Shown here: piece after piece, positions 1,526 through 17,112 of the stretch
Layout: every line of letters starts with the position of its first letter
Position numbering within the stretch: the stretch's first letter is position 1
Made by a program: the position numbers and the translations under genes
Notes under the pieces: model-generated
Database searches by the model: none
The model's input: only the letters and a program-made list of their open reading frames with translations
What the model was told of the DNA's origin: nothing
Assembly: GCA_027448865.1 (NCBI GenBank)
Contig: DAIDMR010000235.1
Span: forward strand, 1 to 45,128
DNA: 45,128 bases
Direction: 5' to 3'
Source: Vampirovibrio sp.
GTDB lineage: Bacteria; Cyanobacteriota; Vampirovibrionia; Vampirovibrionales; Vampirovibrionaceae

Positions 1526-2542
1526 CTAGAAAGGGCGCCATCGATCCTGTTGAAAGGCTTGCGTAATGCGTTGGGCTTGGTGTGCTGCCTCTTTTGCTGA
1601 AAGGTTCCACACCGCTTGTCGGGCCATGGTGCCCATGCCCACCCCGGCAATAAACTGATATTCCGGGTGCTGAAGCAGTTTGGCAGTGTGACCATTTATT
1701 CCCCCGGAGATGGTAATGATGGGTGGGATGAGCCCGGCAATTTCAAACGCCTGCCGGGTGTAGCGGGCCGCTTGCAAGGCGGGACAGGAAGCCTCCGGGT
1801 GATCGTTGCCCGACATGGGTGCACCGTCAATTTGCAGGAAGAGGGGCAATGGGTGGGCTTGTTGGGCGGTTTGCACAAAGCGAATCATCTGCTCAGCGGG
1901 AACGGCCTCAGGCCGGAAGCACAGGGCCATGAGCTTGTTTCTCAGCAGAGGCTGCCAGCGTATGAGAAAGGCTTCCAGCATATAGGGATCAACATAATGG
2001 CTGTGGATCTCCACCGCTTCGGTGGCCGGATGGCTGAGGGCCGCTTCAATCTGGCTTTCCACCTGAAAGGGCAGCAAGTGCAGGGCATCGGTGGGACAAG
2101 TGGGCACACAGCGCCCGCAGCCGTAGCAGAGATCCTGGGAGATGGCCAACGCATCCGGCAGGCTGATGGCCTCTGTGGGGCAAGCGGGCAAACAGAGCCC
2201 GCACCGGATGCAATCAGGCTCGCTTAGTTCAATTTTTCGGAAATGCGGGTCGGGGTCCAATGGCACGCTGACCATCAGCACGGCTGGTGCGGATTGGGCG
2301 TTTTGTATTTCCTGTTGCACCAGACCAATCAGGCTGGCGTCGGGGGCGATATCAATACAATCTGCGCCTGCCGTGAGGTATGCTTGACTAACGGCGGCGA
2401 TTTTATCGGCCTGCGTGAAGCTGCCCCCGCCAATGAGCTTGAAAAAGCGTCGCTGCAGAAGGGCCTCCCACATGCGGGCCTGTGCGGCGCTGAAGGAGGC
2501 GGGTGGGACGGGTTTGGGCAAGGGCGGGCGGGGAAGGCTCAT
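1526..2542 (-). CDS. ldpA: LdpA-like iron-sulfur protein
   Basis: 338-aa ORF. It has FKLIGGGSF...AGADCIDIAPD near the N-terminus and two ferredoxin-type motifs, CIRCGLCLPACP and CYGCGRCVPTCP. This layout is typical of cyanobacterial LdpA. Confidence 0.65.
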   Translation of the reverse strand: MSLPRPPLPKPVPPASFSAAQARMWEALLQRRFFKLIGGGSFTQADKIAAVSQAYLTAGADCIDIAPDASLIGLVQQEIQNAQSAPAVLMVSVPLDPDPHFRKIELSEPDCIRCGLCLPACPTEAISLPDALAISQDLCYGCGRCVPTCPTDALHLLPFQVESQIEAALSHPATEAVEIHSHYVDPYMLEAFLIRWQPLLRNKLMALCFRPEAVPAEQMIRFVQTAQQAHPLPLFLQIDGAPMSGNDHPEASCPALQAARYTRQAFEIAGLIPPIITISGGINGHTAKLLQHPEYQFIAGVGMGTMARQAVWNLSAKEAAHQAQRITQAFQQDRWRPF

Positions 2543-2654: not shown

Positions 2655-3958
<1,304 letters not shown>

Positions 3959-3961
3959 GGC

Positions 3962-4588
3962 TTACACTTTTCCCTTGGCTTCGGTCTTCTTCCAGTTGGG
4001 TAGCTGGCCGGGGTCCGCAGCTCCCGATGCCACCAGATTGAAGGTGTCCCAATGTTCTCTCAGGGCCTCAATACGGAGTGAGTCCGGTTCGCATTGCCAC
4101 ACGTACTTGCCCTTCTTGTTGAATTCGCCTTCCCACAGCGCCCCATTTTCTCGAATGAGCTTCCACAGCACCTCTTCCTCATAGGACAACAGGTGTTGTT
4201 GCTTGAAAGCCAGATTGATGAAACGGTCCGGCTCAAAGGGGTCCCAGATTTCATCCATCAAATTGTAGGAGAACCCGTTCTGGTTCACGATAAGGCCGCT
4301 CTCTGGGTCATCCAGGATACGGCTCAGCGCCCATTCTGCTACAGAGGTGAAATTGCGGTGCTGTTTCCTTGCCATGAGGTCCAATGCGAATTTCAGACGA
4401 GGAGAGAGCCGCATGGTCACGGTTTCGGTTTTGCTGCCACCCTTGGAGAGCTTGGCAGAGGTGGTTTCAGGGATGGCGCGTGTTGCTTCCAATGCGGGGT
4501 CCTCCGGGAAAATGTAAACAGGTATTACCAGTAAAGTTCTGAATTTTTCTATATAAAACCACAGCCTTGCAAAAGATTCAATATTCAT
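3962..4588 (-). CDS. Hypothetical protein with ribbon-helix-helix-like segment, co-transcribed with int
   Basis: 208-aa ORF. TVTMRLSPRLKFALDLMARKQHRNFTSVAEWAL fits a strand-helix-helix pattern. The stop lies 3 nt upstream of the int start. The true start is uncertain. Confidence 0.6.
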   Translation of the reverse strand: MNIESFARLWFYIEKFRTLLVIPVYIFPEDPALEATRAIPETTSAKLSKGGSKTETVTMRLSPRLKFALDLMARKQHRNFTSVAEWALSRILDDPESGLIVNQNGFSYNLMDEIWDPFEPDRFINLAFKQQHLLSYEEEVLWKLIRENGALWEGEFNKKGKYVWQCEPDSLRIEALREHWDTFNLVASGAADPGQLPNWKKTEAKGKV

Positions 4589-4601
4589 AGTAAAAGATTT
4601 T

Positions 4602-4622
4602 GTGTATTCATTTTGAATACAC
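4602..4622. promoter_or_regulatory. Perfect inverted repeat GTGTATTCA-TTT-TGAATACAC in a divergent promoter region (candidate operator)
   Basis: Read directly. It lies between the leftward RHH-int genes and the rightward xis-rep-primase genes. Confidence 0.5.
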
Positions 4623-4650
4623 CAGAGTCAAAAATGAGGAAAAGAAATCT

Positions 4651-4881
4651 ATGAGTATTGCTCATTACCCGGATGGCCGGATGTCACCCCAGCAAGCGGC
4701 TGATTACGTCGGTTGCTCCATGAAAACGTTGGCAATGAAGCGTTGTACCGGCACAGGGCCGGAATTCGTCAAGGTAGGAGGCCGTATTTTCTACTATCAA
4801 GCTGACCTCGACTTGTGGATTAACCGCCATGGCAAGCTGAAAACAACGGCCCAGGCACGCTTAAAGCCTGTGAATGGTTAA
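4651..4881 (+). CDS. Excisionase/AlpA-type helix-turn-helix DNA-binding protein
   Basis: MSPQQAADYVGCSMKTLAMKRCTGTGPEFVKVGGRIFYYQADLDLWI matches the MerR-like excisionase HTH pattern. ATG at 4651 is preceded by GAGGA; the tracked ORF starts upstream at 4600. Confidence 0.75.
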   Translation: MSIAHYPDGRMSPQQAADYVGCSMKTLAMKRCTGTGPEFVKVGGRIFYYQADLDLWINRHGKLKTTAQARLKPVNG

Positions 4882-5431
4882 TCTGCTGAAGTTTGATGGA
4901 GCCAAAGGAATGAGCGGCGGGTTTATCTTATTGCATCGAAAACTGATGCTGCACTGGCTCTATGAGTCTGAGCGGCCATTCACGAAGCGCGAGGCGTGGA
5001 TAGACCTGCTCTTTTTGGCTGCCTACAAAGTGCATTCTCGTGAGCTGGATGGCAAGTTAGCGAATTTGGAAGTAGGGGATATTCCCACTTCCATGCAGCA
5101 ACTGGCAGGTCGGTGGCACTGGACTTGGCGGCGGGTACGGACTTTTCTCAAAACCCTTGAAAATGACGGAATGATTCGCATAGTCAAGCACACGCATAAC
5201 AGCACAATCCTGAAACTCAATAATTACGCTTATTATCAGCTCAAAACTGAGGGCCAGGACACAACGACCAACATAGCCACCAGCACATTAACTCGCTCAC
5301 CCAACAGCAGAGCCAGCAGCAGGACATATAAAAAGAAAGGAGCAAATAAAGAAAAACAAAAAAATAATGACGGAGATTTTCTTGATGATGATGCGTGGAT
5401 GAAAGGAGCGCTCGGCTATGGAGATTCGTGA
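4874..5431 (+). CDS. Replication-associated winged-helix-like protein (hypothetical)
   Basis: 185-aa ORF that overlaps both neighbours (xis stop and primase start). WTWRRVRTFLKTLENDGMI resembles a wHTH. The position upstream of the primase-helicase is typical of replication organisers. Confidence 0.55.
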   Translation: MVNLLKFDGAKGMSGGFILLHRKLMLHWLYESERPFTKREAWIDLLFLAAYKVHSRELDGKLANLEVGDIPTSMQQLAGRWHWTWRRVRTFLKTLENDGMIRIVKHTHNSTILKLNNYAYYQLKTEGQDTTTNIATSTLTRSPNSRASSRTYKKKGANKEKQKNNDGDFLDDDAWMKGALGYGDS

Positions 5432-7232
5432 TATTAATCGCTTGCTGGTTCAGAACATCGACCATGTTCTGGACTATTTGCTTCCTCAAGGTGTGGCTCA
5501 ATATGGGGAGTACTGCGTTGGCAGTGTCGATGGTGAGCCTGGAGACTCGCTAAAGGTTCATTTGCGGGGACGCAAAGCCGGAGTGTGGTGTGATTTTGCC
5601 AACCCCCAGCACACGGGAGACTTGGTGGAATTGTGGCGGCTTACGCGTAACCTCGCGTTGCCCCAGGCTTTGAAGGAAATCAAAGACTTTCTAAGGCTCC
5701 CGGACGAACCTCGCTTTGTGAAAAGTCGGCAGAAGACTTACAAGCGGCCTGAATTCCCGCCATATGAAAGCCCTAAACAGGCTGTATTGGATTATTTATG
5801 TCAAGAGCGGCTTCTGACAAAAGAAACCTTGGGTGCTTTTCAGGTAGGCGAATCTGGCGGTGCTATTTATTTTCCGTTTTATCGTGATGGCAAAGTTCTT
5901 CACTGGAAGAAGCTGTCTCTTAAACGTCCGAATGGCAAGAAGCAGATTCTGACTTCATCCGGTACGGAGCCTATCCTGTTTGGCTGGCAGGCGCTTGAGT
6001 CTGCCTACCCCAACACCCGGTATGTGGTGATTTGCGAGGGTGAAATCGATGCCATGACGCTTCACCAATACGGCATTCCTGCTTTGTCGGTCCCCTTTGG
6101 CGGTGGCGGTGATAAAAAGCAACAGTGGGTTGATTGTGAATATGACCGATTGGAACGCTTTGAGGAAATTTATCTTTGCATGGACCAAGACGCTTCCGGG
6201 AAAGAGGCCGTCCAAGAATTGGTTATGCGCCTCGGGGCCGAGCGTTGTCGGGTGATGGAATTACCTGCTAAAGACCCGAATGAATGCTTACAGGGCGGTA
6301 TGACCGCAGATGAAGTTCAGTACTACTTGAAGACATCGCAAACTCTTGACCCGGAGGAATTGCAAGGTGTTGGTGCCTACCGTCAGAGTGTTCTGGATTT
6401 ATTTTATCCTGATAGCGGCTCGATAAAACAGGAATCCACGCCTCTCCCATGGGCCAAACTGGAAGGCTATTTTGAATTGCGAGCTGGGGAGCTGACCATT
6501 TGGACGGGTATTAACGGCCATGGTAAATCCCAGATGCTGGGGCATGCGGCACTGCATATGATTCTGCATGGTCAGAAAGTCTGTATCGCCTCCATGGAAA
6601 TCAAACCGGAGCGTCTGCTTTACAAACTTACCAAGCAGGCAGCGGGCGTTCGCCACCCTGCGCTGGAACTTATCGATGAAACGTTTGATTGGCTTGGGGA
6701 TGGACTATGGCTTTTTAACGTGGTGGGCACGGCGAAAACCCACCGACTTCTGGAAGTATTTCACTATGCCCGCAAACGGTACGGTGTAAACCATTTTGTG
6801 GTTGATTCCCTCTTAAAGTGCGGATTGGCCGAAGATGACTACAACGGGCAGAAACTGTTTGTGGAGCAGCTTTGTGACTTCAAGAACCAGTACGATTGCC
6901 ATATCCACCTCGTTGTACACCCTCGTAAGGGGAATGATGAATACGCACCCGTAGGCAAAATGGATGTCAAGGGTAGCGGTGCCATTACCGACCTTGCCGA
7001 CAATATCGTATCAGTCTGGCGGAACAAGAAGAAGGAAGAGATGATGGCCGCCGGTAACGAGGTACGACCGGAAGACTTGGCTAAGCCCGATGCGTTCCTA
7101 ACGTGTGCTAAACAACGCAATGGTGAATGGGAAGGGCGGTTGGCCTTGTGGTTTGACCGGGAGAGCGGGCAGTTCTTGAATCAACAAGACGATAAACCCT
7201 CCTCGTATTCAAAATTGATGAAACCATTTTGA
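5418..7232 (+). CDS. Bifunctional primase-helicase (Toprim plus DnaB/Twinkle-like ATPase)
   Basis: 604 aa. Toprim segment VVICEGEIDAMTLHQYGIPALSVPFGGGG. Walker A WTGINGHGKSQ. Walker B HFVVDSL. Also HLVVHPRK and a C-terminal KQRNG motif. Confidence 0.85.
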   Translation: MEIRDINRLLVQNIDHVLDYLLPQGVAQYGEYCVGSVDGEPGDSLKVHLRGRKAGVWCDFANPQHTGDLVELWRLTRNLALPQALKEIKDFLRLPDEPRFVKSRQKTYKRPEFPPYESPKQAVLDYLCQERLLTKETLGAFQVGESGGAIYFPFYRDGKVLHWKKLSLKRPNGKKQILTSSGTEPILFGWQALESAYPNTRYVVICEGEIDAMTLHQYGIPALSVPFGGGGDKKQQWVDCEYDRLERFEEIYLCMDQDASGKEAVQELVMRLGAERCRVMELPAKDPNECLQGGMTADEVQYYLKTSQTLDPEELQGVGAYRQSVLDLFYPDSGSIKQESTPLPWAKLEGYFELRAGELTIWTGINGHGKSQMLGHAALHMILHGQKVCIASMEIKPERLLYKLTKQAAGVRHPALELIDETFDWLGDGLWLFNVVGTAKTHRLLEVFHYARKRYGVNHFVVDSLLKCGLAEDDYNGQKLFVEQLCDFKNQYDCHIHLVVHPRKGNDEYAPVGKMDVKGSGAITDLADNIVSVWRNKKKEEMMAAGNEVRPEDLAKPDAFLTCAKQRNGEWEGRLALWFDRESGQFLNQQDDKPSSYSKLMKPF

Positions 7233-7567
7233 ATTTCTACACGGAGTTGTTTCAAGGCCCTACTGATTGCTCGCGGGAACACCAACCGCGGGCTTTGAGT
7301 ATGAATCCGCCCGGATGCCAAGGAGAAGCATCGCGCCCATTTCATGACGCTGGTAGGGCTGACACCCAGCTTCTTGGCAACCACGTGGCAGGGCTGGCCA
7401 GCTTCATACAACTCGGCAGCCTGCTTTTTGACCTCATATGGCACCGTCCAGAGATGCGACAGGCTGAAGTCATAGGAACAGCCTCGACAGCGCCATTTCT
7501 GACGACCGGCGAAGAAGCCGTTTTTGACTGGATGGGGTTTATTACAGCGCGGGCATAATGGACGCAT
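7181..7567 (-). CDS. InsA-like zinc-ribbon plus HTH protein (no transposase partner)
   Basis: CPRCNKPHPVKNGFFAGRQKWRCRGCSYDFS followed by AELYEAGQPCHVVAKKLGVSPTSVMKWAR. ATG at 7567 is preceded by AAGAGG. Its 3' end overlaps the primase-helicase 3' end convergently by 52 nt. Confidence 0.6.
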   Translation of the reverse strand: MRPLCPRCNKPHPVKNGFFAGRQKWRCRGCSYDFSLSHLWTVPYEVKKQAAELYEAGQPCHVVAKKLGVSPTSVMKWARCFSLASGRIHTQSPRLVFPRAISRALKQLRVEIQNGFINFEYEEGLSSC

Positions 7568-7769
7568 AGAGCCTCTTTTTGAACATCTGTTAATTCTTGT
7601 ACATCTATTACTTATTATTGTCGCTGATTCTGCCCTAACGAGTCCGTAGTGATGGAAAACGACAAACGAAGCCACCTTCGCAACGGGAGGCAGTCGTTTA
7701 AACACCGCTACACGCTTGCAAGAAGCCCATGAACACCCTCTGAAATCCTTACAATACCCTTTCTGATTT

Positions 7770-8075
7770 CTAAACCTCAGGGTGCTGAGCCAACAGTGCG
7801 GTAAGTTCTTGTCTACTTAAATTCCTCAATACCCATAACAAGACTGCATCTCGCTCTTCCTTACTCACCAGGACATCCTGAAAATAAAGAGTGCGAAGGT
7901 GTGAGTAGGCTATTTGGTAGAACTCTGCAAGCCTTTTGAGTCTTTCTGGATTTGGAACACGCTCACCCTTTTCATAGCGGCTGATATCTATTTTGGCAAT
8001 GCCTGTTCCCTTGGTAACGTCAAGTAAAGAGCGCTCTCCTCTCAGACTTCTCAATTTCTGACCTAGTTCGTTCAC
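7770..8075 (-). CDS. XRE-family HTH transcriptional regulator
   Basis: LGQKLRSLRGERSLLDVTKGTGIAKIDISRYEKGERVPNPERLKRLAEFYQI is a classic Cro/CI-type HTH. Confidence 0.85.
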   Translation of the reverse strand: MNELGQKLRSLRGERSLLDVTKGTGIAKIDISRYEKGERVPNPERLKRLAEFYQIAYSHLRTLYFQDVLVSKEERDAVLLWVLRNLSRQELTALLAQHPEV

Positions 8076-8128
8076 TTGACAAGACTCTTTGCTTACGGAT
8101 AATTCAATGGGTAGACATGTTGTCTACC
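8076..8128 (+). promoter_or_regulatory. Candidate sigma70 promoter plus operator for the nuclease operon
   Basis: TTGACA (8076-8081), 16-nt spacer, GATAAT (8098-8103). This is followed immediately by the perfect inverted repeat GGTAGACA-TGT-TGTCTACC (8110-8128). Confidence 0.5.
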
Positions 8129-8166
8129 TTGCCTAATTACACAAAAAGCCTGCCGTTCCCACTGGA

Positions 8167-9348
8167 ATGGCAGACCTTAGACATAGTTTGAAAGCAGCCT
8201 ATCACAGCCATAAGGCTCTGTCTTGTGCTGGCTACCTACTTAATGCTGAGCTTGAATTTGTGCCACCATCATCTGAAAAAAGCGAACTGGAAAGACGCTT
8301 CGAGAAATTGTTCTCCGAAGTCTTCCGTTGCGACTGGCACAAGCACCTGCAAGACGAGTATCGCGTCCAGGTAGACGGCAAGAACTACTACATCGACTAC
8401 GTTTACATCGCCCAAGGCCGTAAGATTGCCATCGAAGTGGACGGTCACGACAAAATCAAAGGGGCGACTGACTCCACCCAAAAATTCCATGACCTTTTGA
8501 CCCGACAGAATGACCTCATGGGCCAAGGCTTTGAAGTGTATCGGTTCGGGTGGAACCATGTGGTCTCTATGGGGGGCTGGCGTGCCAGACGAGACTTGAA
8601 ACGCATCTTCAAGGGCGTCATCAAGCCTCAGCGCCAGCCGGAAGAGAGGAAGCAGGCCAGCCCTATATTCCAGACACTGCCAGTGCTATGGAAATCCCGA
8701 AAGTCAGGGGGATTGGCAACCCATAATGCACCAGCACCCGGTAATAGCGGCCAAAACTCACAGCCGGATATCATCGAAGCCGAGGTACTCCCGTATCATC
8801 CCCCGGCTCACAATCAGGGCATGATGAAGGGGTTTGTCGTGGGCGTGAGCGTGTTGGGCTTCCTGCTGATTACCCTCGAACTGATTCGCGGCTCGCAGCT
8901 CCATCCAGAGGTTAAGCCAGAGACTTCCGTATCTGAGCATGCTTTGGAATCAGTCCCGCCTTCTTCGGGCAAGGAGACGCCTCAGAAGAAACGAGTTACC
9001 CATAGGGCTGCCATTATTGAGAAAGTACGCACGGTGTATGTGCCTGTTCTCTCAAAATCCACCAGCACCAAGCCAATTGCTCCATCCGTCCTGCCTACTC
9101 AAGCCTCAACAGCTCACCCGGAGTCAAGCCCAGAACCTACCCCCGCCCCAATTCCTCAAATTACCGAGCAACCAGTCCAACAAGCCGCCCCGATTATGGA
9201 TGAAATCGTAGCCTTCAACCAGAATTCTGGCATCTACCATAGACTCAATTGCACATGGGCTAAGCGGTGCAGGCATTGCATCACCATCCATCAGAGCGAG
9301 GCCGAGCAAATGGGAGGCAGGCCCGCCAAGACCTGTGACCCGTTATGA
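8167..9348 (+). CDS. Membrane-anchored DUF559/Vsr-like (PD-(D/E)xK) endonuclease with Pro-rich linker and Ada-like Cys-rich C-terminal domain
   Basis: N-terminal SELERRFEKLF...YYIDYVYIAQGRKIAIEVDGHDK...GFEVYRFGWNHV fits the DUF559 pattern. One hydrophobic helix, FVVGVSVLGFLLITLELI. A P/S/T-rich linker. C-terminal GIYHRLNCTWAKRCRHCITIHQSEAEQMGGRPAKTCDP. Confidence 0.7.
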   Translation: MADLRHSLKAAYHSHKALSCAGYLLNAELEFVPPSSEKSELERRFEKLFSEVFRCDWHKHLQDEYRVQVDGKNYYIDYVYIAQGRKIAIEVDGHDKIKGATDSTQKFHDLLTRQNDLMGQGFEVYRFGWNHVVSMGGWRARRDLKRIFKGVIKPQRQPEERKQASPIFQTLPVLWKSRKSGGLATHNAPAPGNSGQNSQPDIIEAEVLPYHPPAHNQGMMKGFVVGVSVLGFLLITLELIRGSQLHPEVKPETSVSEHALESVPPSSGKETPQKKRVTHRAAIIEKVRTVYVPVLSKSTSTKPIAPSVLPTQASTAHPESSPEPTPAPIPQITEQPVQQAAPIMDEIVAFNQNSGIYHRLNCTWAKRCRHCITIHQSEAEQMGGRPAKTCDPL

Positions 9349-9788
9349 GGTGGCTGGCAATTCTACTTTCCCTCACCCTGTTTGGTGCTGGTGCATATGC
9401 CGAACAAGTTCGCTACGTCATTGATGGCGATACTTTCATTATGTCTGATGACTCCCGTGTTCGCCTTGCTGGCATTGATGCACCCGAACTCAGCCAGCCC
9501 TATGGGCCAGAATCTAAGGCCTACTTGGAGAAGCTGATATCCGGTCGAGATGTAACCCTCCAATGCAACGGCGAGATGAGCTACAACCGGCGAATCTGCA
9601 ATGCTTTTGTGAATGGATTGGACATTCAACGCGACCTTGTGGGTTGGGGATTGGCGTTTGATTATGCCCAGTACTCCCATGGCATCTATCGTTCTGCCGA
9701 AGACTTCGCCTGTCGGATGAAGCGGGGCGTATGGAGCGGTGGTATGCGTCCGTGGGATTACAGACACAGAATGAAGGAGAAGCGCTAA
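9345..9788 (+). CDS. Secreted thermonuclease (staphylococcal nuclease homologue)
   Basis: Signal peptide MRWLAILLSLTLFGAGAYA. VIDGDTF...VRLAGIDAPE...YGPESKAYL...NRR match the SNase catalytic pattern. The start overlaps the upstream stop (ATGA). Confidence 0.85.
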   Translation: MRWLAILLSLTLFGAGAYAEQVRYVIDGDTFIMSDDSRVRLAGIDAPELSQPYGPESKAYLEKLISGRDVTLQCNGEMSYNRRICNAFVNGLDIQRDLVGWGLAFDYAQYSHGIYRSAEDFACRMKRGVWSGGMRPWDYRHRMKEKR

Positions 9789-9970
9789 TGTACAGCACGA
9801 CGGGTGAGCCAGTAACTTTGATGCACTGGCTCTATGCCATTGGGGTCTATGGACTCTTCATATACGGAATCTTTTACGTTTTGAAAGCAATAGGCAAAGG
9901 GCTTCTGGATTGCCTGATGGTTTTTGACCAGTTGTATAAAGAGTACAAAGCCCATACCCGCACTCACTAG
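9788..9970 (+). CDS. Small membrane protein (60 aa, one TM helix)
   Basis: ATG overlaps the SNase stop (TAATG). Hydrophobic segment WLYAIGVYGLFIYGIFYVL. The tracked ORF (9731) starts further upstream inside the SNase gene. Confidence 0.5.
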   Translation: MYSTTGEPVTLMHWLYAIGVYGLFIYGIFYVLKAIGKGLLDCLMVFDQLYKEYKAHTRTH

Positions 9971-10066
9971 ATAGGCCCCCATAATTCCTTGTCGATGGCA
10001 ATATGCAGTTTCATGCTGCACAAAACATGCTTCTTCGATAAAATGCTGAGTTAGAAGGGGGTAATC

Positions 10067-10267
10067 ATGCCCAGACCCAAAGGACGAGAGTATAACTACC
10101 GTGTCACTGTCAACTTAAGTGACGAGCATTACGCGGCACTAAACAGTCTAGCGGAGAAGAATCAAGCTGCAATTGCCTGGACGGTTCGGCGTGCAGTGAT
10201 GGAATTCATTACAAAATATGACTCAGACCTTTTGCAGGAAAGGTTTCTCCCGCTTGAAGAGGGCTAG
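10067..10267 (+). CDS. Ribbon-helix-helix (CopG/Arc-like) DNA-binding protein
   Basis: YRVTVNLSDEHYAALNSLAEKNQAAIAWTVRRAVMEFI is a strand-helix-helix pattern. RBS GGGGG lies upstream of the ATG. Confidence 0.7.
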   Translation: MPRPKGREYNYRVTVNLSDEHYAALNSLAEKNQAAIAWTVRRAVMEFITKYDSDLLQERFLPLEEG

Positions 10268-10325
10268 TTTATAGTCTGCCAGATTGAAAATACAAAACCA
10301 GAATGGTTGATGAGGAAGGAAGACA

Positions 10326-12152
10326 ATGGAAAACAACCCATTTCAGACGAGACAGCCGAATATTATTGCGAATTCTCGCATCAGAACACCCCAACGCGAA
10401 ACATTCGAGCATTTGTCTTCCTTCGCCGCCGAAGAAAACCCAACAAGCCGTGAAGTTGGTATTGTTTTGCCGGTAGGTTGTGGAAAGTCCGGCTGTATAG
10501 CAACCGCTCCCTTCGCTTTCCAGGCTTGTCGCACTTTGGTTGTTGCTCCCGGTATTGCCATTGCCCAGCAGCTTCATCGTGACTTTGACCCAGCTAACCC
10601 AGAGATGTTCTATATCAAGTGTGGAATTTTGGACGGGCAGCCCTACCCTGAGCCGGTAGAGATACGCGGAACCAGCACCAATCTCTCTGACCTTGAAGAG
10701 TCAGATGTTGTCATTACAAATATCCAACAGCTCCAAGGGCAAGAGAACCGTTGGCTTCAGAACCTGCCAGCCGATTTCTTCGACTTAATTCTCTTTGATG
10801 AAGGCCACCACAACGTTGCTGCCAGTTGGGAAACTTTGCGAAGCAGGTTTCCGAATGCCCGCATTGTGAATTTCAGTGCGACACCCATGCGTTCAGATGG
10901 TCAACCTATGGCAGGTCGCATCCTATATTCGTATCCAATTTTCCGAGCGATTCAGGAAGGGTATGTCAAGCAACTCAAAGCTGTCGTTTTAAATCCACGT
11001 ACATTGCGTTACGTCCGGCGAGAAGACGGCCAAGAAATTGAAGTTACACTGGACGAAGTTCGTAGGCTTGGAGAGACAGAGGCCAATTTCCGTCGCAGTA
11101 TTGTGACATCGACTGAGACTCTTAACACCATAGTGGATGCCTCCATACGCGAACTCGACCGTCTTCGTAGAGAGAGCGGCGAGCAGCGTCTGAAAATTAT
11201 TGCTTCCGCCCTCAATTACGAACATTGTCGTCAAATTGTTGAAGCCTACAGAGCGCGAGGCCGACGTGCGGATTATGTTCATTCTCGTGAAGATGGACAA
11301 GGACAGGCCAATCAACAGGTTCTCCGACGTTTAGAAGCCCACGAACTGGATGTAATTGTTCAAGTGCGGAAGCTCGGAGAAGGCTTTGACCACCCGTATC
11401 TTGCTGTGGCAGCCGTATTCAGTATTTTCAGTAATCTCTCACCCTTTGTTCAGTTTGTTGGGCGTATCATGCGAGTCATCCGACAGAATGCTCCTGGAGA
11501 TATTTTGAACCGAGGAAGCGTGGTATTCCATGCCGGTGCAAACATTGCGCGGAGATGGGAAGACTTTCAGCAATACAGTGAAGCCGACCAAGAGTTTTTT
11601 GAGCAACTTCTGCCCATTGAAGACCTTGATTTTTCCCATGGGGACGAACTTGAGGTCGAGCCAGTACAACGAGAGTTTGGTGACGTAGACCAGATGGAAG
11701 TACGGCACCAAAGTGGAGTGCAGCTTGAAGAGATTCCTTTGTTACGTGATGACCCAGCGGCCCTCGCAGCCCTTCGGTTACTTCAGGAAAGAGGCTATTC
11801 TGCTGATGAAGTAACTCAAGCAATGCAGGAACTCGACCCTGTTCCAGTTACCAGGGTACGGCAACGCCAAGCAATGCGTGATGGACTTGATATGCGCATA
11901 AGAACCGAGACAGGGCGAATCCTTGGAGAACGTGGCATAAATCACCAAGGTCACGAACTGGACCGTCGCCGTCTTGGGCGTACAAACTTCGTGGTCCTAA
12001 AATCAGCAATTGACCGTTCAGTTGCCACCTTTATCGGGCGAGGTACGGGCGAGCGTAGCGAATATAACCGAGAAGAATTAGACCGAATCGATTCTGATTT
12101 CAGTGGCATTGTGGCACGAGCTACCGAGGAGGTATTCGGTGCCGCGAGTTAG
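10326..12152 (+). CDS. SF2 DEAD/DEAH-type helicase (ResIII-like) with uncharacterised ~180-aa C-terminal region
   Basis: Motif I LPVGCGKSG, Ia VVAPGIAIAQQL, II LILFDEGHH, III FSATP, VI VQVRKLGEGFDHP. RBS GAGGAAGGAAG. Confidence 0.85.
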   Translation: MENNPFQTRQPNIIANSRIRTPQRETFEHLSSFAAEENPTSREVGIVLPVGCGKSGCIATAPFAFQACRTLVVAPGIAIAQQLHRDFDPANPEMFYIKCGILDGQPYPEPVEIRGTSTNLSDLEESDVVITNIQQLQGQENRWLQNLPADFFDLILFDEGHHNVAASWETLRSRFPNARIVNFSATPMRSDGQPMAGRILYSYPIFRAIQEGYVKQLKAVVLNPRTLRYVRREDGQEIEVTLDEVRRLGETEANFRRSIVTSTETLNTIVDASIRELDRLRRESGEQRLKIIASALNYEHCRQIVEAYRARGRRADYVHSREDGQGQANQQVLRRLEAHELDVIVQVRKLGEGFDHPYLAVAAVFSIFSNLSPFVQFVGRIMRVIRQNAPGDILNRGSVVFHAGANIARRWEDFQQYSEADQEFFEQLLPIEDLDFSHGDELEVEPVQREFGDVDQMEVRHQSGVQLEEIPLLRDDPAALAALRLLQERGYSADEVTQAMQELDPVPVTRVRQRQAMRDGLDMRIRTETGRILGERGINHQGHELDRRRLGRTNFVVLKSAIDRSVATFIGRGTGERSEYNREELDRIDSDFSGIVARATEEVFGAAS

Positions 12153-12363
12153 GTCTTTGATTGAAACCGTTGCGATTGATATTGCCCAGCGTGCCCATAA
12201 CTGCCAAGGCAATGCAAATCATCGTCTCGAAGCAGGTGTTAAACGCCTTAAAGTTCGCAAGCAACGAAGCTGGGACCATTACTGTATGGAATGTGCTAAA
12301 CGCATCCTGGAACAAGATGTAATCAAGCTCCAGGGACTCATACAGGAGTTTAGCAGTACCTGA
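12139..12363 (+). CDS. Small Cys/His-containing protein (74 aa), translationally coupled to the helicase
   Basis: GTG 12139 lies 6 nt after a perfect AGGAGG and overlaps the helicase 3' end. Contains HNC...HYCMEC. The tracked ORF begins at 12103. Confidence 0.5.
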   Translation: MPRVRSLIETVAIDIAQRAHNCQGNANHRLEAGVKRLKVRKQRSWDHYCMECAKRILEQDVIKLQGLIQEFSST

Positions 12364-12743
12364 GTCCTAATTAAATTTTCCCTACTGAGCCCTATAGCGC
12401 GCACGTGGGGAATTTTTGCGTGGAATTTGGCACGGTATCCCTCCCGCCACTCCCCTACCACCCTTTAGGATATGGATAGAGGCACCACCCACCGCCCCCT
12501 TACGCGGGCAGATTGAACGTCACCTTGGCAAGTCGGACGAGTGAGAGTTGCAGACCCTTACCCTGCTGCCCTTCGCTGGGGGATTGTCTGCTCCGGCTGT
12601 GAAACATCAATACCAAGCCCTTCGGGTGGCTTCATTCTTCAGCCAGTATTGACATTTCCCATCCTCCACAGGTGTCTCCAGCTACGAAGGTCAGCCGGTT
12701 AAAAAATGGCGCACTATGCCCATTTTTAGCCGGTGCGTAGCAG
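12364..12743 (+). other. 380-bp ORF-free, apparently structured region upstream of ardA (candidate ncRNA, leader or ssDNA element)
   Basis: No ORF of 60 aa or more on either strand. C-rich tracts at 12439-12464, 12483-12499 and 12658-12670. A UUCG-capped hairpin at 12615-12632. An A/T-flanked hairpin at 12701-12727 bracketed by direct AGCCGGT repeats. Confidence 0.4.
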
Positions 12744-12764
12744 TTGAACATTGAGGAATTGGAA

Positions 12765-13298
12765 ATGATACAAGAACAAGTCACCCCACGGGTCTATGTG
12801 GCCTGTCTGGCCTCTTACAATGCGGGATGCCTTCATGGGTCTTGGGTGAACGTGGATGGCGATGCCGATGACCTGATGACCCACATCCGGTCCGTGCTGT
12901 CAGCTTCCCCCGAGCCGGACGCCGAGGAGTGGGCTATTCATGATTATGAGGGCTTCGGGTCTGTGCAGGTGGATGAGTATGCCTCATTGGAGCGTGTAGC
13001 CGCCATGGCGGAGTTGATACGTGAGCATGGAGAGCTTGCAGGCGAGGTAATCAGCCACTATGGGGGAGACGTGGAAGAATCGCGCCGTGCCTTGGAAGAG
13101 GACTACCAAGGGTGTCATGCCAGCTTGGAAGATTACGCCGAGTCGTTCATGGAAGACACCGGCAGTCTGGAAGGGATACCCGCATCCATCCGACCCTACA
13201 TTGATTACGAACGGATGGCGAGGGATTGGGAGCTGAACGGGGACATCTTCACCCTGGAAACCAGTTACAACGAAGTCCACGTGTTTTGGAATCGATAG
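12765..13298 (+). CDS. ardA: ArdA-family anti-restriction protein
   Basis: PRVYVACLASYNAGCLHGSWV..., an acidic composition, IDYERMARDWELNGDIF and VHVFW are characteristic of ArdA. ATG 12765 is preceded by GAGGA; the tracked ORF starts at TTG 12744. Confidence 0.85.
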   Translation: MIQEQVTPRVYVACLASYNAGCLHGSWVNVDGDADDLMTHIRSVLSASPEPDAEEWAIHDYEGFGSVQVDEYASLERVAAMAELIREHGELAGEVISHYGGDVEESRRALEEDYQGCHASLEDYAESFMEDTGSLEGIPASIRPYIDYERMARDWELNGDIFTLETSYNEVHVFWNR

Positions 13299-13312
13299 GA
13301 AAGGCTTGAACA

Positions 13313-13477
13313 ATGAGCAATCAAGAATGGACAACCCTGCAATGGTTCCAGCACAAAGCCATTCACTTGGCCTATGACGTTCTACTATGGCTGCACGACA
13401 AGCTTATAAACTACGCCTGTGAGCGTAACCTCTGGCGAACACCCGAACAGCGGGCAGCAGAGCAACCACTAGATTGA
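13313..13477 (+). CDS. Small hypothetical protein (54 aa, below the ORF-track cutoff)
   Basis: ATG 13313 to TGA 13477, read by hand (MSNQEWTTLQWFQHKAIHLAYDVLLWLHDKLINYACERNLWRTPEQRAAEQPLD). A terminator hairpin follows directly. Confidence 0.35.
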   Translation: MSNQEWTTLQWFQHKAIHLAYDVLLWLHDKLINYACERNLWRTPEQRAAEQPLD

Positions 13478-13480
13478 GAA

Positions 13481-13507
13481 AAGGGGCTACCAAGCCCCTT
13501 TCTTCTT
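13481..13507. terminator. Bidirectional intrinsic terminator between convergent genes
   Basis: AAGGGGCT-ACCA-AGCCCCTT hairpin, flanked by A-rich sequence on the left and T-rich sequence on the right. Confidence 0.65.
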
Positions 13508-13509
13508 AC

Positions 13510-14142
13510 TTATTTGCCACAACATTGCTCTCCTTTGATGCCCTCTAGACCTTCTCGCAACAGCCAAGGCGTCATAACCAGCCCAGCAGCCGGGTCAGCC
13601 CACCACCACCCTAACAAGGCATTGGCACCCAGACCCACCAGAAGAATCAGAGAGAGATAGGCGCAGCAAATAGTTTCTTTAGCTTCCATCTCAAGGGCTT
13701 CACTGCCCAGATTCTTGGCGATTTTGATTTTCCAACGGGCAAGCAGAGGCATGATAACGAGGGAAAGAATCGCCAAGATGATGCCGACCATACTTTCTTC
13801 TGGCGTACGATGCGTCCATAGGTTTACAGCCGCCTGACTCCCCACATATAGTGCCAGTGCTATAAACGTGAAACCGACAAATCGCCTTGCAAATTGCTCC
13901 CGCTTCTCCAATACACATTCACTCACTCCACCACGGGCTTTGATGAGATGCCATAGAACGACTGCCGATGCGGAAACTTCAATGATGCTATCAAAGCCAA
14001 AGCCCACTAAAGAAATGCTTCCAGCACTCAACCCTTGCCATACCGCAATTAAACCTTCCAGCAAATTGTAGATAATCGTTCCTGTGAGTAACAGGAAAGC
14101 AAGGTTGTAGCTTTTGTGAGTAGTGATGTCTGAAAGATTCAT
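13510..14142 (-). CDS. Cation-efflux (CDF-like, membrane domain only) transporter
   Basis: 210 aa with about 6 hydrophobic helices. [25 protein letters not shown] resembles the CDF TM2 region. The C-terminus ends GEQCCGK. Last gene of the ars operon. Confidence 0.6.
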
Positions 14143-15212
14143 TGAGAGCCTATCTCCGTTTTGGTAAGAAAATATCGCTCACGAATCCAGAGCGATACGT
14201 TGACCAATCCAATGAGCACCGGCACCTCGACCAGCGGGCCAATGACCGCCGCAAACGCAGCACCGGAACCAATACCGAACACAGCAACCGCTACCGCAAT
14301 TGCCAGCTCGAAATTGTTGCTGGCTGCCGTGAACGAAAGCGTAGCAGCTTTGGCATAATCAGCTCCCACCCGATGGCCCATGTAGAAGCTAAGCATGAAC
14401 ATCACCACAAAGTAGATGAGCAGGGGAATGGCAATACGCACTACGTCCAAGGGGATTTGTACAATCAGTCCACCCTTGAGGCTGAACATCACCAGAATGG
14501 TAAAGAGCAATGAAATCAAGGTAATGGGACTGATTCTGGGAATGAATACGCGCTCATACCAATCTTTCCCTTTGGTTTTTAATAGGGCAAATCGGGTCAA
14601 CATCCCAGCCAGGAAGGGAATTCCCAGGTAGATGAAGACGCTTTTTGCAATCTCGACAATGCTGATATTGACGATAGCCCCCGGTAGCCCAAAGACAGGC
14701 GGCAAGACCGTGATAAAGAACCAGGCGTACACACTGTAGAACAGCACCTGAAACACGCTATTGAAGGCCACCAATCCCGCCGCATAGTCTGTATCGCCTT
14801 CTGCCAATTCATTCCAGACAATGACCATGGCAATACAGCGGGCAAGGCCAATCAGAATCAGCCCCACCATATATTCCGGGATGTCATGCAGGAATACCAA
14901 AGCCAGCACGAACATCAGGAGTGGCCCAATGACCCAGTTTTGCAACAGGGACAGGCCCAGGACTTTCCAATTGCGGAAGACCTTCCCCAGTGATTCATAG
15001 CGAACCTTGGCAAGGGGTGGGAACATCATCAGAATCAGGCCGATGGCAATCGGGATGTTGGTCGTTCCCACCTGGAAACGCTGCATGAATGGGGCTACCG
15101 ACGGAATGAAGTAACCCAGACCAACACCTACCGCCATGGCCAAGAAAATCCACAGCGTGAGGTAGCGGTCCAGGAATGAGAGTCGGCAAATACGCGTCCC
15201 TGGCATCTTCAC
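14139..15212 (-). CDS. acr3: ACR3-family arsenite efflux permease
   Basis: 357 aa. [27 protein letters not shown] and the overall polytopic pattern are typical of Acr3. Confidence 0.9.
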
Positions 15213-15535
15213 CTCGGCCAGTACATGATGATGACTACTCCCACCAAGGCAATTACACCACCAATGACATCAAACCTGTCAGGTGCTATTTTATCGACCT
15301 GCCAGCCCCACAAAATGGAAAGGGCAATAAAGATGCCACCGTATGCGGCATAGACTCGGCCAAAGTTTGCGGGTTGAAGTGTTGGTATTATTCCGTAAAG
15401 AATCAGCAGAATAGCCCCAGCAAGAGCAAACAGCATGCCTTTGCCCTCTCGTAACCAGAGCCATACCAGATAACCACCCCCAATTTCACAGAGGCCAGCA
15501 ATAAGGAAATAGAAAGACGATTTAACTATTTCCAT
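15209..15535 (-). CDS. ynfA: YnfA (UPF0060) small membrane protein
   Basis: 108 aa. [18 protein letters not shown] and [20 protein letters not shown] closely parallel E. coli YnfA. Confidence 0.85.
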
Positions 15536-15536
15536 A

Positions 15537-16046
15537 TTAACAACACCCGCTAGCAGGTGCTATCACTGTTGGGCAGCAGTTCTCAGCTTCGGAATCCTCT
15601 ATCTTGGCAGGACCACAGCAAGCCGTTGCATCGGTTGAGGAGAAGAGGGTTTCTCCCTCATCATCATGGCGAACCCAGAATTCCCACTCGTTTCCATCCG
15701 GGTCATGTAACCAGAACTTATCTGCCACGGCATAGCAGCAAGTCACGCCTTCCTCTTCCAGATGCAGCAGAATGCCCGTCGCCTTGATTCGCTCTTTCCA
15801 GTCGGCAAGTGCCGTATCATCGAAGAGTTCAACGCCGAAGTGTTGGCCCAGACCATTGGTAACAGTCTGTTTAGACTGGTTGGGGTGATGGACTAAGGCC
15901 AGATGCAACGCGGGGGTATCCAGGCGGAAATTGGCATAGTCAGGTTTTCTTTTACTGGGTTCTATCCCAAACACCTTGCTATAGAAGTCAATGGAGGCTT
16001 CCAGATTGGAAACCGACAAGTTGATGTGGATGCGAGTGTTCGCCAT
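15537..16046 (-). CDS. arsI: ArsI/CadI-type glyoxalase-fold (VOC) protein, probable C-As lyase
   Basis: [22 protein letters not shown]. Vicinal Cys in GVTCCYA. WEFW. The Cys-rich tail has three CC pairs. Start taken at ATG 16046 rather than the tracked 16112. Confidence 0.75.
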
Positions 16047-16059
16047 GGCGCATGTCCTT

Positions 16060-16503
16060 TCAGTGAGTTGGTAGGTTATCAGGCAGAGATTCGATAAAGT
16101 GACGGATTTCATCCCGCACCCGTCGATAGACTGTCAGACCCTCGGCTTCCGTCAATCCCTTGGCAAGCCGGGGTGGGTCATCAAAACCGTGATGGATGAT
16201 TCGGGTTGTACCAGGGAACAAAGGGCAGCTTTCGCTAGCGCTATCGCAAACTGTGACCACGTAATCAAATGGGATGTGCTGTACGTCATTTAAATGCTTG
16301 GATTGATGGCCGGAAATGTCTACCCCGGCCTCTTGCATCACTTGAACCGCTACAGGGTTGAGTCCGTGGGTTTCAATACCTGCTGAGCAGGCTTCCAGCA
16401 CATCGCCTTTAAGGATATGCGCCCAACCTTCCGCCATCTGGCTTCGGCAGGAGTTTCCCGTACACAGAAACAGGATGTTTATCTTTCGGCTTGAATCTTG
16501 CAT
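16060..16503 (-). CDS. arsC: Arsenate reductase, LMW-PTPase family
   Basis: ILFLCTGNSCRSQMAEGW is the CX5R P-loop, with downstream Cys residues. Confidence 0.9.
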   Translation of the reverse strand: MQDSSRKINILFLCTGNSCRSQMAEGWAHILKGDVLEACSAGIETHGLNPVAVQVMQEAGVDISGHQSKHLNDVQHIPFDYVVTVCDSASESCPLFPGTTRIIHHGFDDPPRLAKGLTEAEGLTVYRRVRDEIRHFIESLPDNLPTH

Positions 16504-16850
16504 AGTTCCTCCGGCTCCATTCTCAGAACCGCTTCCAGGGTCTGCCGGTCTGCCTGAATTTGCTTATCTTGTTCAAGCGCGCCAAACACCCAAGCCAGGG
16601 CTTGCTGAACCACAGGGGAAGCATCCGGCCCAGCCGTTCTGTAATACACCCATCGGCCTTTCTTCTGAGAATCCAACAATCGGGCCTGATGCAGGATAGA
16701 CAGATGCTTGGAAGTTGTGGAGGGCGCTAGTCCCAGGAACTCAATCACCTGACAGACGCACAACTCTCTATCCTTCAAGCAGTAGAGAATCCGAATTCGG
16801 TTCTCATCGGCCATGGCCTTCACGATTTCCATGAAGTCTCGCATGGTCAT
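16479..16850 (-). CDS. arsR: ArsR/SmtB-family metalloregulator
   Basis: ELCVCQVIEFLGLAPSTTSKHLSILHQARLL contains the CVC As(III) site plus a wHTH. Confidence 0.9.
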   Translation of the reverse strand: MTMRDFMEIVKAMADENRIRILYCLKDRELCVCQVIEFLGLAPSTTSKHLSILHQARLLDSQKKGRWVYYRTAGPDASPVVQQALAWVFGALEQDKQIQADRQTLEAVLRMEPEELCKIQAER

Positions 16851-16874
16851 CTCCTATAATTCGCTATATGACGA

Positions 16875-16903
16875 AATATAATCCATGTCTTGCAAGACGT
16901 CAA
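16875..16903 (-). promoter_or_regulatory. ars operon promoter with embedded 12-bp perfect palindrome (candidate ArsR operator)
   Basis: On the minus strand: TTGACG (16898-16903), 17-nt spacer, TATATT (16875-16880). The palindrome GTCTTGCAAGAC (16887-16898) sits in the spacer. AGGAG RBS precedes the arsR ATG. Confidence 0.6.
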
Positions 16904-16918
16904 GATTTTGGAGGAACT

Positions 16919-16938
16919 CTGTGTAATTCTTGTGTAAT
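16919..16938 (+). repeat. Candidate arm-type integrase binding site (tandem GTGTAAT), right arm
   Basis: Matches 2780-2799 at 19 of 20 positions, in the same orientation. Confidence 0.5.
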
Positions 16939-16973
16939 CGGGCTTAGAAAAACCTCAAAAACTCTAGAATCAT

Positions 16974-17059
16974 TGAGAATTCTCAGGTTCTTTAAGAATC
17001 CCAAGAAGCAAAGATTTGAGAAGGTTCTGGACAATCTTAGGGTCTTCGAGAAGCTCAGG
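16974..17059 (+). repeat. Three imperfect GAGAA-N4/5-C(A/T)GG repeats next to attR
   Basis: TTGAGAATTCTCAGG (16974-16988), TTGAGAAGGTTCTGG (17016-17030) and TCGAGAAGCTCAGG (17046-17059). The first contains the 10-bp palindrome GAGAATTCTC. Confidence 0.35.
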
Positions 17060-17065
17060 AAGGAC

Positions 17066-17112
17066 GTTTCGTAAACCGTAGGTCACGAGTTCAAGTCTCG
17101 TCATCGGCTCCA
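17066..17112 (+). repeat. attR: displaced 3' half of tRNA-Thr
   Basis: GTTTCGTAAACCGTAGGTC-ACGAGTTCAAGTCTCGT-CATCGGCTCCA. 40 of 47 nt are identical to 2684-2730. The T stem differs by compensatory changes. Confidence 0.85.

Follow-up and report, generated by a model that had tools for sequence, protein, structure and literature searches.

The operon at positions 10067-12363 of contig DAIDMR010000235.1 (Vampirovibrio sp.) raises the question of which of its genes work together and on what DNA they act. The whole stretch analyzed, 45,128 nucleotides (nt) in length, is referred to here as the window. The operon consists of a ribbon-helix-helix (RHH) gene, a gene for a superfamily 2 (SF2) helicase and a short open reading frame (ORF) for a protein of 74 amino acids (aa), and all three were found where a sequence-only reading of the window had placed them. 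The functional unit is 10326-12363, comprising the helicase and the small ORF. The RHH gene is read as a local regulator, and the nuclease operon just upstream and the downstream gene for ArdA are separate cargo.

The helicase and its small partner

The major data for the pairing of the two genes came from a comparison of 83 loci, of which 80 were genome loci from very different phyla and three were plasmid loci. A homologue of the small ORF starting at or overlapping the helicase stop codon was present at 80 of the 83, spanning many phyla, and the three loci lacking it are cut at contig ends. Plasmids with the small ORF behind the helicase include one of Xanthomonas and a 5.9-kb one of Salmonella. 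When the ORFs within 8 kb were clustered, only the helicase and the small gene were common to most loci, the other neighbors being unrelated. The combination of a helicase with a small Cys/His ORF, as first proposed from the sequence alone, is therefore a genuine conserved pair, and the small protein is an obligate partner of the helicase. Identity of the small-ORF homologues to the window by codon position was 0.61/0.69/0.33, from which coding selection was deduced, and the small ORF is a real gene.

The small ORF also starts as claimed, at a GTG (12139) that AGGAGG precedes with a 6-nt spacer, within the 3' part of the helicase coding sequence. In the window the two genes share 14 nt, and across the loci the overlap was 14 nt (41 loci), 8 nt (19 loci), 1 nt (7 loci) and 11 nt (3 loci), accounting for 70 of the 71 loci compared. 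Most loci repeat the arrangement '..AGGAGGTnTTCG (G/A)TG' at the start of the small gene. The codons for EEVFG at the helicase C terminus, which host the Shine-Dalgarno sequence of the small ORF, are conserved, and a Shine-Dalgarno-like motif was observed in the last codons of the helicase at 76 of 90 loci. Translation of the small gene is coupled to that of the helicase. No annotation of the small gene is given in the public records of Acinetobacter pAC1633-3 (L003 2453-2683), Paracoccus aerodenitrificans plasmid p2 (L085 6805-7065) and Aminobacter pMDW3 (L086 6772-7077), with the ORF present and overlapping the helicase end in each case. Since it is unannotated in several public records, it is easily overlooked in surveys.

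The assignment of the small protein as a zinc finger was deduced from its conserved residues. Among 142 representatives, C22 was conserved in 97%, H28 in 94%, C49 in 95%, C52 in 93% and H20 in 91%. The stretch HNC...HYCMEC, suggested in the sequence-only reading as a possible zinc site, contributes the residues of the conserved site (C22, H28, C49 and C52, at 93-97%). A distant subfamily of the small protein has the pattern C-x2-C...C-x2-C instead, and the two patterns together infer a zinc finger. A profile search of 1.84 billion representative sequences returned 273 clusters, and the best 150 of these were nearly all stand-alone proteins of ~75 aa. Domain fusions were looked for and rejected: a match of 848 aa was an ankyrin-repeat artefact, and the other long matches inspected look frameshifted or mis-called.

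The AF2 model of the small protein (predicted local distance difference test, pLDDT, 85.5) has five short strands and a long C-terminal helix at aa 50-73. The 23 best matches of this model in the PDB, obtained with Foldseek, were all zinc fingers of PARP-1 (Zn1/Zn2) or Lig3, with probabilities of 0.60-0.99, template modeling (TM) scores of 0.42-0.58 and E values of 0.17 or worse for what is a predicted model; zf-PARP proteins also recurred among the matches in a viral structure library. At the sequence level the relationship was not replicated. None of 32 members of the small-protein family gave a Pfam match to zf-PARP at E<=10, hhalign against the PARP1 and Lig3 fingers returned a probability of 0.4%, and the profile search of the PDB gave no zf-PARP link. 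No Pfam family of any kind was found for the small protein, and PHROGs held nothing for it. The resemblance to PARP fingers is therefore treated as a fold-level lead, apparent in the model, and not as family membership.

For the helicase, the Pfam matches were ResIII (E=2e-24), DEAD and Helicase_C, covering aa 19-188 and 289-384, and the SF2 motifs were invariant columns in the family alignments. The earlier statement that all SF2 motifs are present was correct in that the set is complete, but the stretch VRKLGEGFDHP, offered there as the QxxGRxxR-like motif, is motif V, and the true motif VI, QFVGRIMR, lies 20 residues downstream. Pfam detected no nuclease domain in the helicase, and since the motor begins at aa 19 there is no room for an N-terminal one. 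The best Foldseek matches of the helicase model (pLDDT 64 overall) were RadD, XPB and HsdR, while the family profile searched against the PDB gave XPBII (E=4e-12) and an HsdR fragment (3e-8), and PHROGs gave a generic helicase family only. Among named families, weak matches restricted to the motor were obtained for EcoAI-type HsdR, the Dnd restriction enzyme, PbeA and type III/IV enzymes, all of them far below the cut-offs. The protein is a nuclease-less XPB/RadD/HsdR-like SF2 DNA translocase.

The acidic linker that follows the motor (aa ~404-478) was the least conserved stretch in the helicase alignment. Beyond it, the model contains helices at aa 477-488, 493-502, 509-535, 554-569 and 582-605, with block-mean pLDDT values mostly of 54-89 and a block at aa 501-510 of 39. 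The description of the C-terminal ~180 aa as unassigned was borne out, as no family was found for it in Pfam, the PDB or PHROGs; the sole lead was a nonsignificant match to EcoEI_R_C (E=0.043) for 1 of 14 members. This helical C-terminal domain is a candidate docking site for the small protein.

Genomic context and the neighboring genes

Clustered at 90% identity, the helicase family forms >4,000 groups in the protein collection; for the best 120, full-length identity was 71-77%. The helicases at the genome loci were 56-77% identical and came from Acidobacteriota, Planctomycetota, Bacillota, Pseudomonadota, Nitrospirota, Chloroflexota, Saccharibacteria and others. Identity of this order across phyla infers extensive horizontal transfer under strong constraint, and strong purifying selection across phyla was observed for both the helicase and the small protein. 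Most copies of the module are chromosomal, with the helicase present on 42 of 72,556 plasmids and the module absent from 5,426 complete E. coli genomes. A phage origin was considered and rejected, since no helicase orthologue was found in 50,697 phage records and the PHROGs match was to a generic helicase only. Mobile DNA and defence islands carry the module in most bacterial phyla.

The 149 immediate neighbors of the module include resolvases, integrases, at least nine DNA methylases of five families, the restriction endonucleases XamI and EcoRII, DndB, TnsD and HipA. Strong PADLOC matches near the module were to restriction-modification (R-M) types I, II, IIG and III, DpdF, a CBASS cyclase, LmuB, DndB and PDC-S71. 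Among the second neighbors were ImmA/Xre pairs (7/140), Mrr, GmrSD, HsdR, AbiE, a relaxase, a Tn3 transposase and one ArdC. One locus (L092) is a textbook defence island with an OLD-like gene, a type III R-M system, SNF2+DUF4391 and Dcm, and two others (L088 and L090) contain many transposons and toxin-antitoxin genes. At six loci (L010, L087, L022, L026, L032 and L074) the pair abuts same-strand R-M genes with gaps of 9-77 nt. In L010 and L087 an N6_N4 methyltransferase adjoins the helicase with a gap of 12 nt, and in L022 HsdM lies 9 nt downstream and is followed by two unannotated ORFs of HsdS/HsdR size. The neighborhood analysis thus placed the homologues in variable islands and mobile elements beside R-M and defence genes, not beside replication or repair genes. 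The small ORF was conserved and no named system was matched, so that none of the three grounds on which the sequence-only reading said it should be abandoned was encountered.

Several further observations were made on the neighbors. ImmA/IrrE (Peptidase_M78) and the Xre-type helix-turn-helix (HTH) protein each accounted for 7 of 140 second neighbors (L004-L083), and ImmA/IrrE genes also occur in the Mycobacterium plasmid locus L084 and in L088. At about eight loci a small ORF of ~78 aa, DUF2188-like by eye, lies directly upstream of the helicase. A distant helicase subfamily, ~34% identical, occurs on plasmids of Mycobacterium (L084 4740-7132), Paracoccus (L085 4824-7065) and Aminobacter (L086 4794-7077). 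Its helicase carries what was read by eye as a fused N-terminal excisionase/MerR-like HTH, and its small partner is a C-x2-C...C-x2-C zinc ribbon that is degenerate in Mycobacterium. An ArdC-like gene and mobQ adjoin the module in L085, whereas in L086 the module stands directly after traA-traC-traG. In small enterobacterial plasmids (5.9-6.9 kb), rep overlaps the helicase start.

In the literature, the only mention of the module is as a 'DEAD/DEAH helicase' in a pdif module of an Acinetobacter plasmid termed cryptic, where the module is pdif cargo (PMC7885321). The full-text search returned no paper naming or testing the helicase-zinc-finger pair. DNA similarity to other records was confined to the helicase gene, with no conserved flanking DNA, and no inverted repeats flank the pair. 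The idea that the pair is a self-contained mobile unit was rejected for these reasons.

The RHH protein gave a Pfam match to RHH_1 at aa 12-49 (E=2.5e-4; 21.3 bits against a cut-off of 20.5) and a match to a PHROG for 'transcriptional repressor' (E=1.4e-4). Its N-terminal RHH_1 domain, small size and position upstream of a target operon are those of the RHH (CopG/Arc/MetJ) factors. The first 83 loci had no RHH homologue near the module, and the genes that immediately precede the helicase vary from locus to locus. In the set of 95 loci, homologues were observed intact in L087, degraded in L010 and in the pair L090/L091 at a distance of 4 kb on the opposite strand. The window RHH was 44% identical (E=4e-13) to the one heading the L087 operon, and a word-index search of the large protein database gave no relatives. 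The RHH gene is a local add-on and not a core part of the module. Since it is seldom present beside the module, it is read as a local transcriptional regulator rather than an antitoxin, and the test for a type II toxin-antitoxin system likewise showed that it is not consistently paired with the helicase across the 95 loci. Of the two roles suggested for it in the sequence-only reading, that of autorepressor is thus favored, whereas that of antitoxin-like or system component is disfavored by its absence from almost all loci. The simplest reading is that it is a local autoregulator, predicted to repress the operon.

The region ahead of the RHH gene contains a candidate promoter, TGCACA-16-TAAAAT at 10017-10044. 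Such sigma-70-like sites were no more frequent across 9700-12900 than expected by chance (2 found, 3.1 expected). Three direct repeats of (C)ATGCT, starting at 10012, 10026 and 10043, overlap this site; the triple pattern, which was picked after the sequence was viewed, is found at a single place in the window and in none of 100 shuffles. The L087 RHH homologue likewise has tandem repeats beside a TTGACA at its promoter. The L087 operon (7262-12035) itself has five co-directional genes with gaps of 10-14 nt, encoding an RHH protein, an Mrr_cat nuclease (456 aa), an N6_N4 methylase, the helicase and the zinc finger. The same five-gene arrangement is found in L010 (5306-10008), where the RHH copy has an internal deletion.

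The upstream operon encodes a DUF559-like protein, an SNase-type nuclease and a 79-aa ORF. The gene announced earlier as a Vsr-like nuclease is the DUF559-like one, and the DUF559/Vsr match of its N terminus was below the Pfam cut-off (E=0.0037). The product has 393 aa with a hydrophobic segment (judged by eye), a long Pro/Ser-rich linker and a C-terminal Cys/His cluster (YHRLNCTWAKRCRHC...). The SNase-type protein has 147 aa and, by eye, a signal-like N terminus, while the 79-aa ORF overlaps the SNase gene and has a hydrophobic stretch, again by eye. The unit looks like an exported or membrane-associated nuclease unit that is independent of the helicase module. Homologues of the DUF559-like protein were found at 0 of 95 related loci, and an SNase homologue was found at one of the 95, at 4.5 kb from the helicase. 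Since these genes do not co-occur with the helicase, the operon was rejected as its partner, and the proposal of one split helicase-nuclease system together with 7770-9970 found no support.

A 14.4-kb island integrated at tRNA-Thr carries the module as cargo (Table 1), along with two nucleases, ArdA and a glyoxalase-family gene. The SBF-family transporter of the island may be an ACR3-type arsenite carrier. The gene flanking the island is LdpA, which indicates a cyanobacterial host. The earlier framing as a satellite hotspot was loosely right only, as the element is a tRNA-Thr island with an integrase and a primase-helicase. A 174-aa ORF on the minus strand (7181-7705), which overlaps the 3' end of the primase-helicase gene, has a Cys-rich N terminus and an HTH_23/HTH_Tnp_1 domain and resembles an N-terminal fragment of an IS-type transposase or an InsA-like regulator.

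The ardA gene lies 381 nt downstream on the same strand, and the 380-nt spacer that parts it from the small ORF contains several long inverted repeats. As single-stranded DNA (ssDNA), 12540-12745 folds at -37.4 kcal/mol (z=-3.6), with 0 of 200 shuffles folding as well, and a TTGACA at 12648-12653 falls within a stem. Possibly the region serves ardA as a single-strand (Frpo/ssi-like) promoter, in which case the element would be transferred as ssDNA. No conserved association of ArdA with the helicase module was found, and an Rfam scan of the operon gave no match.

Table 1. Positions of the features of the operon and of the island that carries it
Feature	Position	Strand	Remarks
LdpA gene flanking the island	1526-2542		
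Integrated element	2655-17112		14.4 kb, at tRNA-Thr
tRNA-Thr	2655-2730		
47-nt direct repeat bounding the island	2684-2730 and 17066-17112		tRNA 3' half, 85% identical
Integrase gene	2666-3958	minus	
Primase/DnaB-like gene	5418-7232		
Upstream operon	8167-9970		Three products: DUF559-like, SNase, 79-aa ORF
Candidate promoter/operator of the operon	10012-10047	+	Repeats over sigma-70-like site
RHH (CopG-type) protein	10067-10267	+	66 aa, 58 nt upstream of helicase
Helicase	10326-12152	+	608 aa, SF2, ResIII (XPB/RadD/HsdR-like) branch
Two-lobed RecA-like motor core	10380-11489	+	aa 19-388
Motif I, GCGKSG	10476-10493	+	aa 51-56
Motif II, DEGHH	10797-10811	+	aa 158-162
Motif III, SAT	10875-10883	+	aa 184-186
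Motif V, LGEGFDHP	11373-11396	+	aa 350-357
Motif VI, QFVGRIMR	11451-11474	+	aa 376-383
Acidic variable linker	11535-11759	+	aa ~404-478, pLDDT <50
Conserved all-helical C-terminal domain	11754-12140	+	aa ~477-605
Shine-Dalgarno AGGAGG of the small ORF	12127-12132	+	6-nt spacer, within helicase C-terminal EEVFG codons
Small ORF	12139-12363	+	74-aa basic zinc-finger protein, GTG start
Ligand codon C22	12202-12204	+	
Ligand codon H28	12220-12222	+	
Ligand codon C49	12283-12285	+	
Ligand codon C52	12292-12294	+	
Cation-efflux gene	13510-14142		
SBF-family transporter gene	14139-15212		

What the module may do

The reading that we favor, tentatively and at somewhat less than an even chance, is that the helicase and the zinc finger form an unnamed defence or exclusion module acting on invading DNA. 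This function is suggested by the genomic context, by the absence of the family from phages, by the restriction-type ancestry of the motor, the nearest characterized relatives of which are restriction-type translocases and XPB, and by the fold-level lead for the finger.

The following mechanism is envisaged. Translational coupling should yield the two proteins in a fixed proportion, and they would form a complex. The basic zinc finger would recognize discontinuities in entering or replicating foreign DNA, such as free ends, nicks or single/double-strand junctions, and would then recruit or license the helicase, probably via the helical C-terminal domain. The motor would translocate or unwind with ATP and thereby strip off replication or packaging proteins, or else expose the DNA to host nucleases or to nucleases encoded nearby; it may act alone or with the nuclease and methylase genes that lie beside the module. 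In the window the module would be placed under the CopG-type RHH repressor, which would bind the (C)ATGCT repeats over the promoter and keep expression low.

Several points weigh against this function. No experimental phenotype was found anywhere, neither protein matches a validated defence family, and neither has a nuclease or other effector domain. The cross-phylum identity of 56-77% is unusually high for an arms-race protein and would better fit a protein that acts on DNA structures or on universal host factors. Anti-restriction or establishment genes are among the neighbors (ArdA here, ArdC-like genes in L085 and one other locus), and small enterobacterial plasmids have the module fused with rep in one operon. 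The PARP resemblance, with Foldseek E>=0.17, no Pfam match and an hhalign probability of 0.4%, is at the fold level only, and the enrichment of defence genes among the neighbors is an apparent one, read from plain counts.

A bolder version, which we consider unlikely, takes the fold-level lead at face value. The ~75-aa protein would be a true prokaryotic PARP-type sensor of nicks and breaks that licenses a nuclease-less XPB/HsdR-like motor at DNA discontinuities, and the module would be an effector-less, structure-sensing surveillance unit that could itself dock onto various nuclease or methylase partners.

Of the alternatives to a defence or exclusion module, the one that survives best, though it is still doubtful, is that the module serves the element itself. 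On this view the two proteins would process or repair DNA as a RadD/XPB-like pair and thereby aid incoming or excised element DNA in establishment or anti-defence, by converting or repairing nicked, gapped or restriction-damaged DNA or by evicting host defence proteins. RadD is indeed the top structural neighbor of the helicase, and the very high cross-phylum conservation fits universal substrates. The positions of ardA behind the strongly folding ssDNA region, of ArdC-like genes beside the module in L085 and at one further locus, of the L086 module directly after tra genes, and of the module co-transcribed with rep in 5.9-kb enterobacterial plasmids all point the same way. However, anti-defence genes are commonly shared with phages, and this family was found in 0 of 50,697 phage records. 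It is also rare on plasmids (42/72,556), and many loci are chromosomal defence islands beside complete R-M systems. The NCBIfam score for RadD (NF053632) was 25.7 bits against a cut-off of 720, and the word 'helicase' is absent from the main text of the leading-region anti-defence survey (PMC11541004).

Alternatively, the pair could supply the motor subunit to a split restriction enzyme whose nuclease, with or without a methylase, is encoded separately; in the window, as in the one-system option of the sequence-only reading, the nuclease would come from the DUF559-like/SNase operon (8167-9788). This interpretation, which we regard as improbable, derives from the resemblance of the helicase to an HsdR without its nuclease domain, from the weak EcoEI_R_C lead in its C-terminal domain, and from L087 and L010, where the order RHH-Mrr_cat-N6_N4 methylase-helicase-zinc finger begins with a homologue of the window RHH and has gaps of 10-14 nt. 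Several other loci likewise have same-strand methylase or R-M genes within 9-77 nt. At most loci, however, neither a nuclease nor a methylase adjoins the pair, and where partners occur they come from unrelated families. The nucleases of the window itself recur at 0 of 95 loci (DUF559-like) and at one locus (SNase), and a 96-nt gap with its own promoter-like site, together with the RHH gene, separates the two operons.

More improbable again is a toxin-antitoxin or addiction module in which a toxic helicase is neutralized by the zinc-finger protein or by the RHH protein. RecQ-like helicase toxins exist, RHH proteins are common antitoxins, and overlapping small and large genes resemble a toxin-antitoxin layout; the module is also found on small plasmids and beside HipA/Xre, BrnTA and GNAT/DUF1778 pairs. 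Against this, the RHH is absent from almost all loci, the small gene lies downstream of the helicase with no sign of lability in its product, both proteins are under strong purifying selection across phyla, and no toxin-antitoxin-type helicase family was found among the PADLOC matches. Least credible of all is a replication helicase of a plasmid or element with the zinc finger as accessory loader, since the overlap of rep with the helicase start in 5.9-6.9-kb enterobacterial plasmids and the primase/DnaB-like protein of the island are set against nearly all other loci lacking an adjacent replication gene, an Acinetobacter module that is pdif cargo far from repM, copies that are mostly chromosomal and a family that is absent from phages.

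The implications differ with the reading. If the defence or exclusion reading is true, a very widespread family (>4,000 clusters at 90% identity, most bacterial phyla) joins the catalogue of such systems, whereas an aid to establishment would constitute a new class of establishment factor. If the small protein is a PARP-type sensor, the pair would rank, in breadth of transfer and in conservation, with the foremost unnamed modules of bacteria and could represent the bacterial ancestry of the eukaryotic zf-PARP sensors of DNA damage; the relationship to PARP fingers, if true, would link the biology of bacterial mobile elements to eukaryotic break sensing. The module is in addition a compact, testable model for the coupling of a DNA-structure sensor to a translocase.

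Comparison with known systems

No named defence system was matched by the pair in PADLOC 2.0, NCBIfam or Pfam, which gave weak motor-level matches only. Among named families, the best sequence matches of the helicase were to HsdR/Res, the motor subunits of type I and type III restriction enzymes (EcoAI/FtnUII family). Both have a dsDNA-translocase core of ResIII + Helicase_C with a helical region C-terminal to it, the helicase aligns to the motor of PDB 3h1t, and the module often adjoins DNA methylases. It differs in having no N-terminal PD-(D/E)xK nuclease domain, and its scores were 36 bits against 550 for NF046051 and 21.6 against 284.6 for TIGR00348. Furthermore, there is no obligatory HsdM/HsdS or Mod but an obligate zinc-finger partner instead; a methylase is nearby in a minority of loci only, from five unrelated families, and none is present in the window operon.

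The best PDB profile match of the helicase was to archaeal XPB(II)-Bax1, and in both a motor works with a partner from a separate gene. In the module a 74-aa zinc finger takes the place of the Bax1 nuclease, the helicase showed no XPB damage-recognition domain, and the context is that of bacterial mobile DNA in contrast to archaeal repair. RadD (YejH), an SF2 accessory ATPase of recombination and repair in E. coli, has a motor together with a zinc-binding element and a C-terminal domain. It is of similar size and was the top structural neighbor (Foldseek E=1.9e-13). In view of the NCBIfam score given above, this likeness is structural only; moreover, the zinc element is a separate gene here, and the module is mobile accessory DNA rather than a core gene.

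PARP-type zinc fingers (PARP-1 Zn1/Zn2 and the DNA ligase III ZnF) sense DNA nicks and breaks. By eye, they and the small protein both have one ligand pair in the strand region and another at the start of a helix. The small protein differs in its spacing, C-x5-H...C-x2-C instead of the C-x2-C-x28-30-H-x2-C of zf-PARP (PF00645), and in being a stand-alone protein with a long C-terminal helix.

Hachiman HamAB, DISARM DrmA-DrmB, helicase-DUF2290, Hhe and PbeABCD share with the module the general logic of an SF1/SF2 motor with a small or nonenzymatic partner, encoded in defence islands, and DrmB/DUF1998 is also zinc binding. Neither protein of the pair has a DUF1837, DUF1998, DUF2290 or Vsr domain by Pfam. 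With respect to Hachiman, no HamA/HamB match was obtained in PADLOC and the partner is not DUF1837; with respect to Hhe and helicase-DUF2290, the helicase has no Vsr or DUF559 domain and no PADLOC match. PbeA was matched at 39.8 bits over profile positions 298-619 of 672, and the module has no further conserved genes. The pair thus belongs to no family tested. As a helicase-centered module it is of a known kind, while its architecture, a restriction-type motor without a nuclease joined to an obligate mini zinc finger, is unusual and new.

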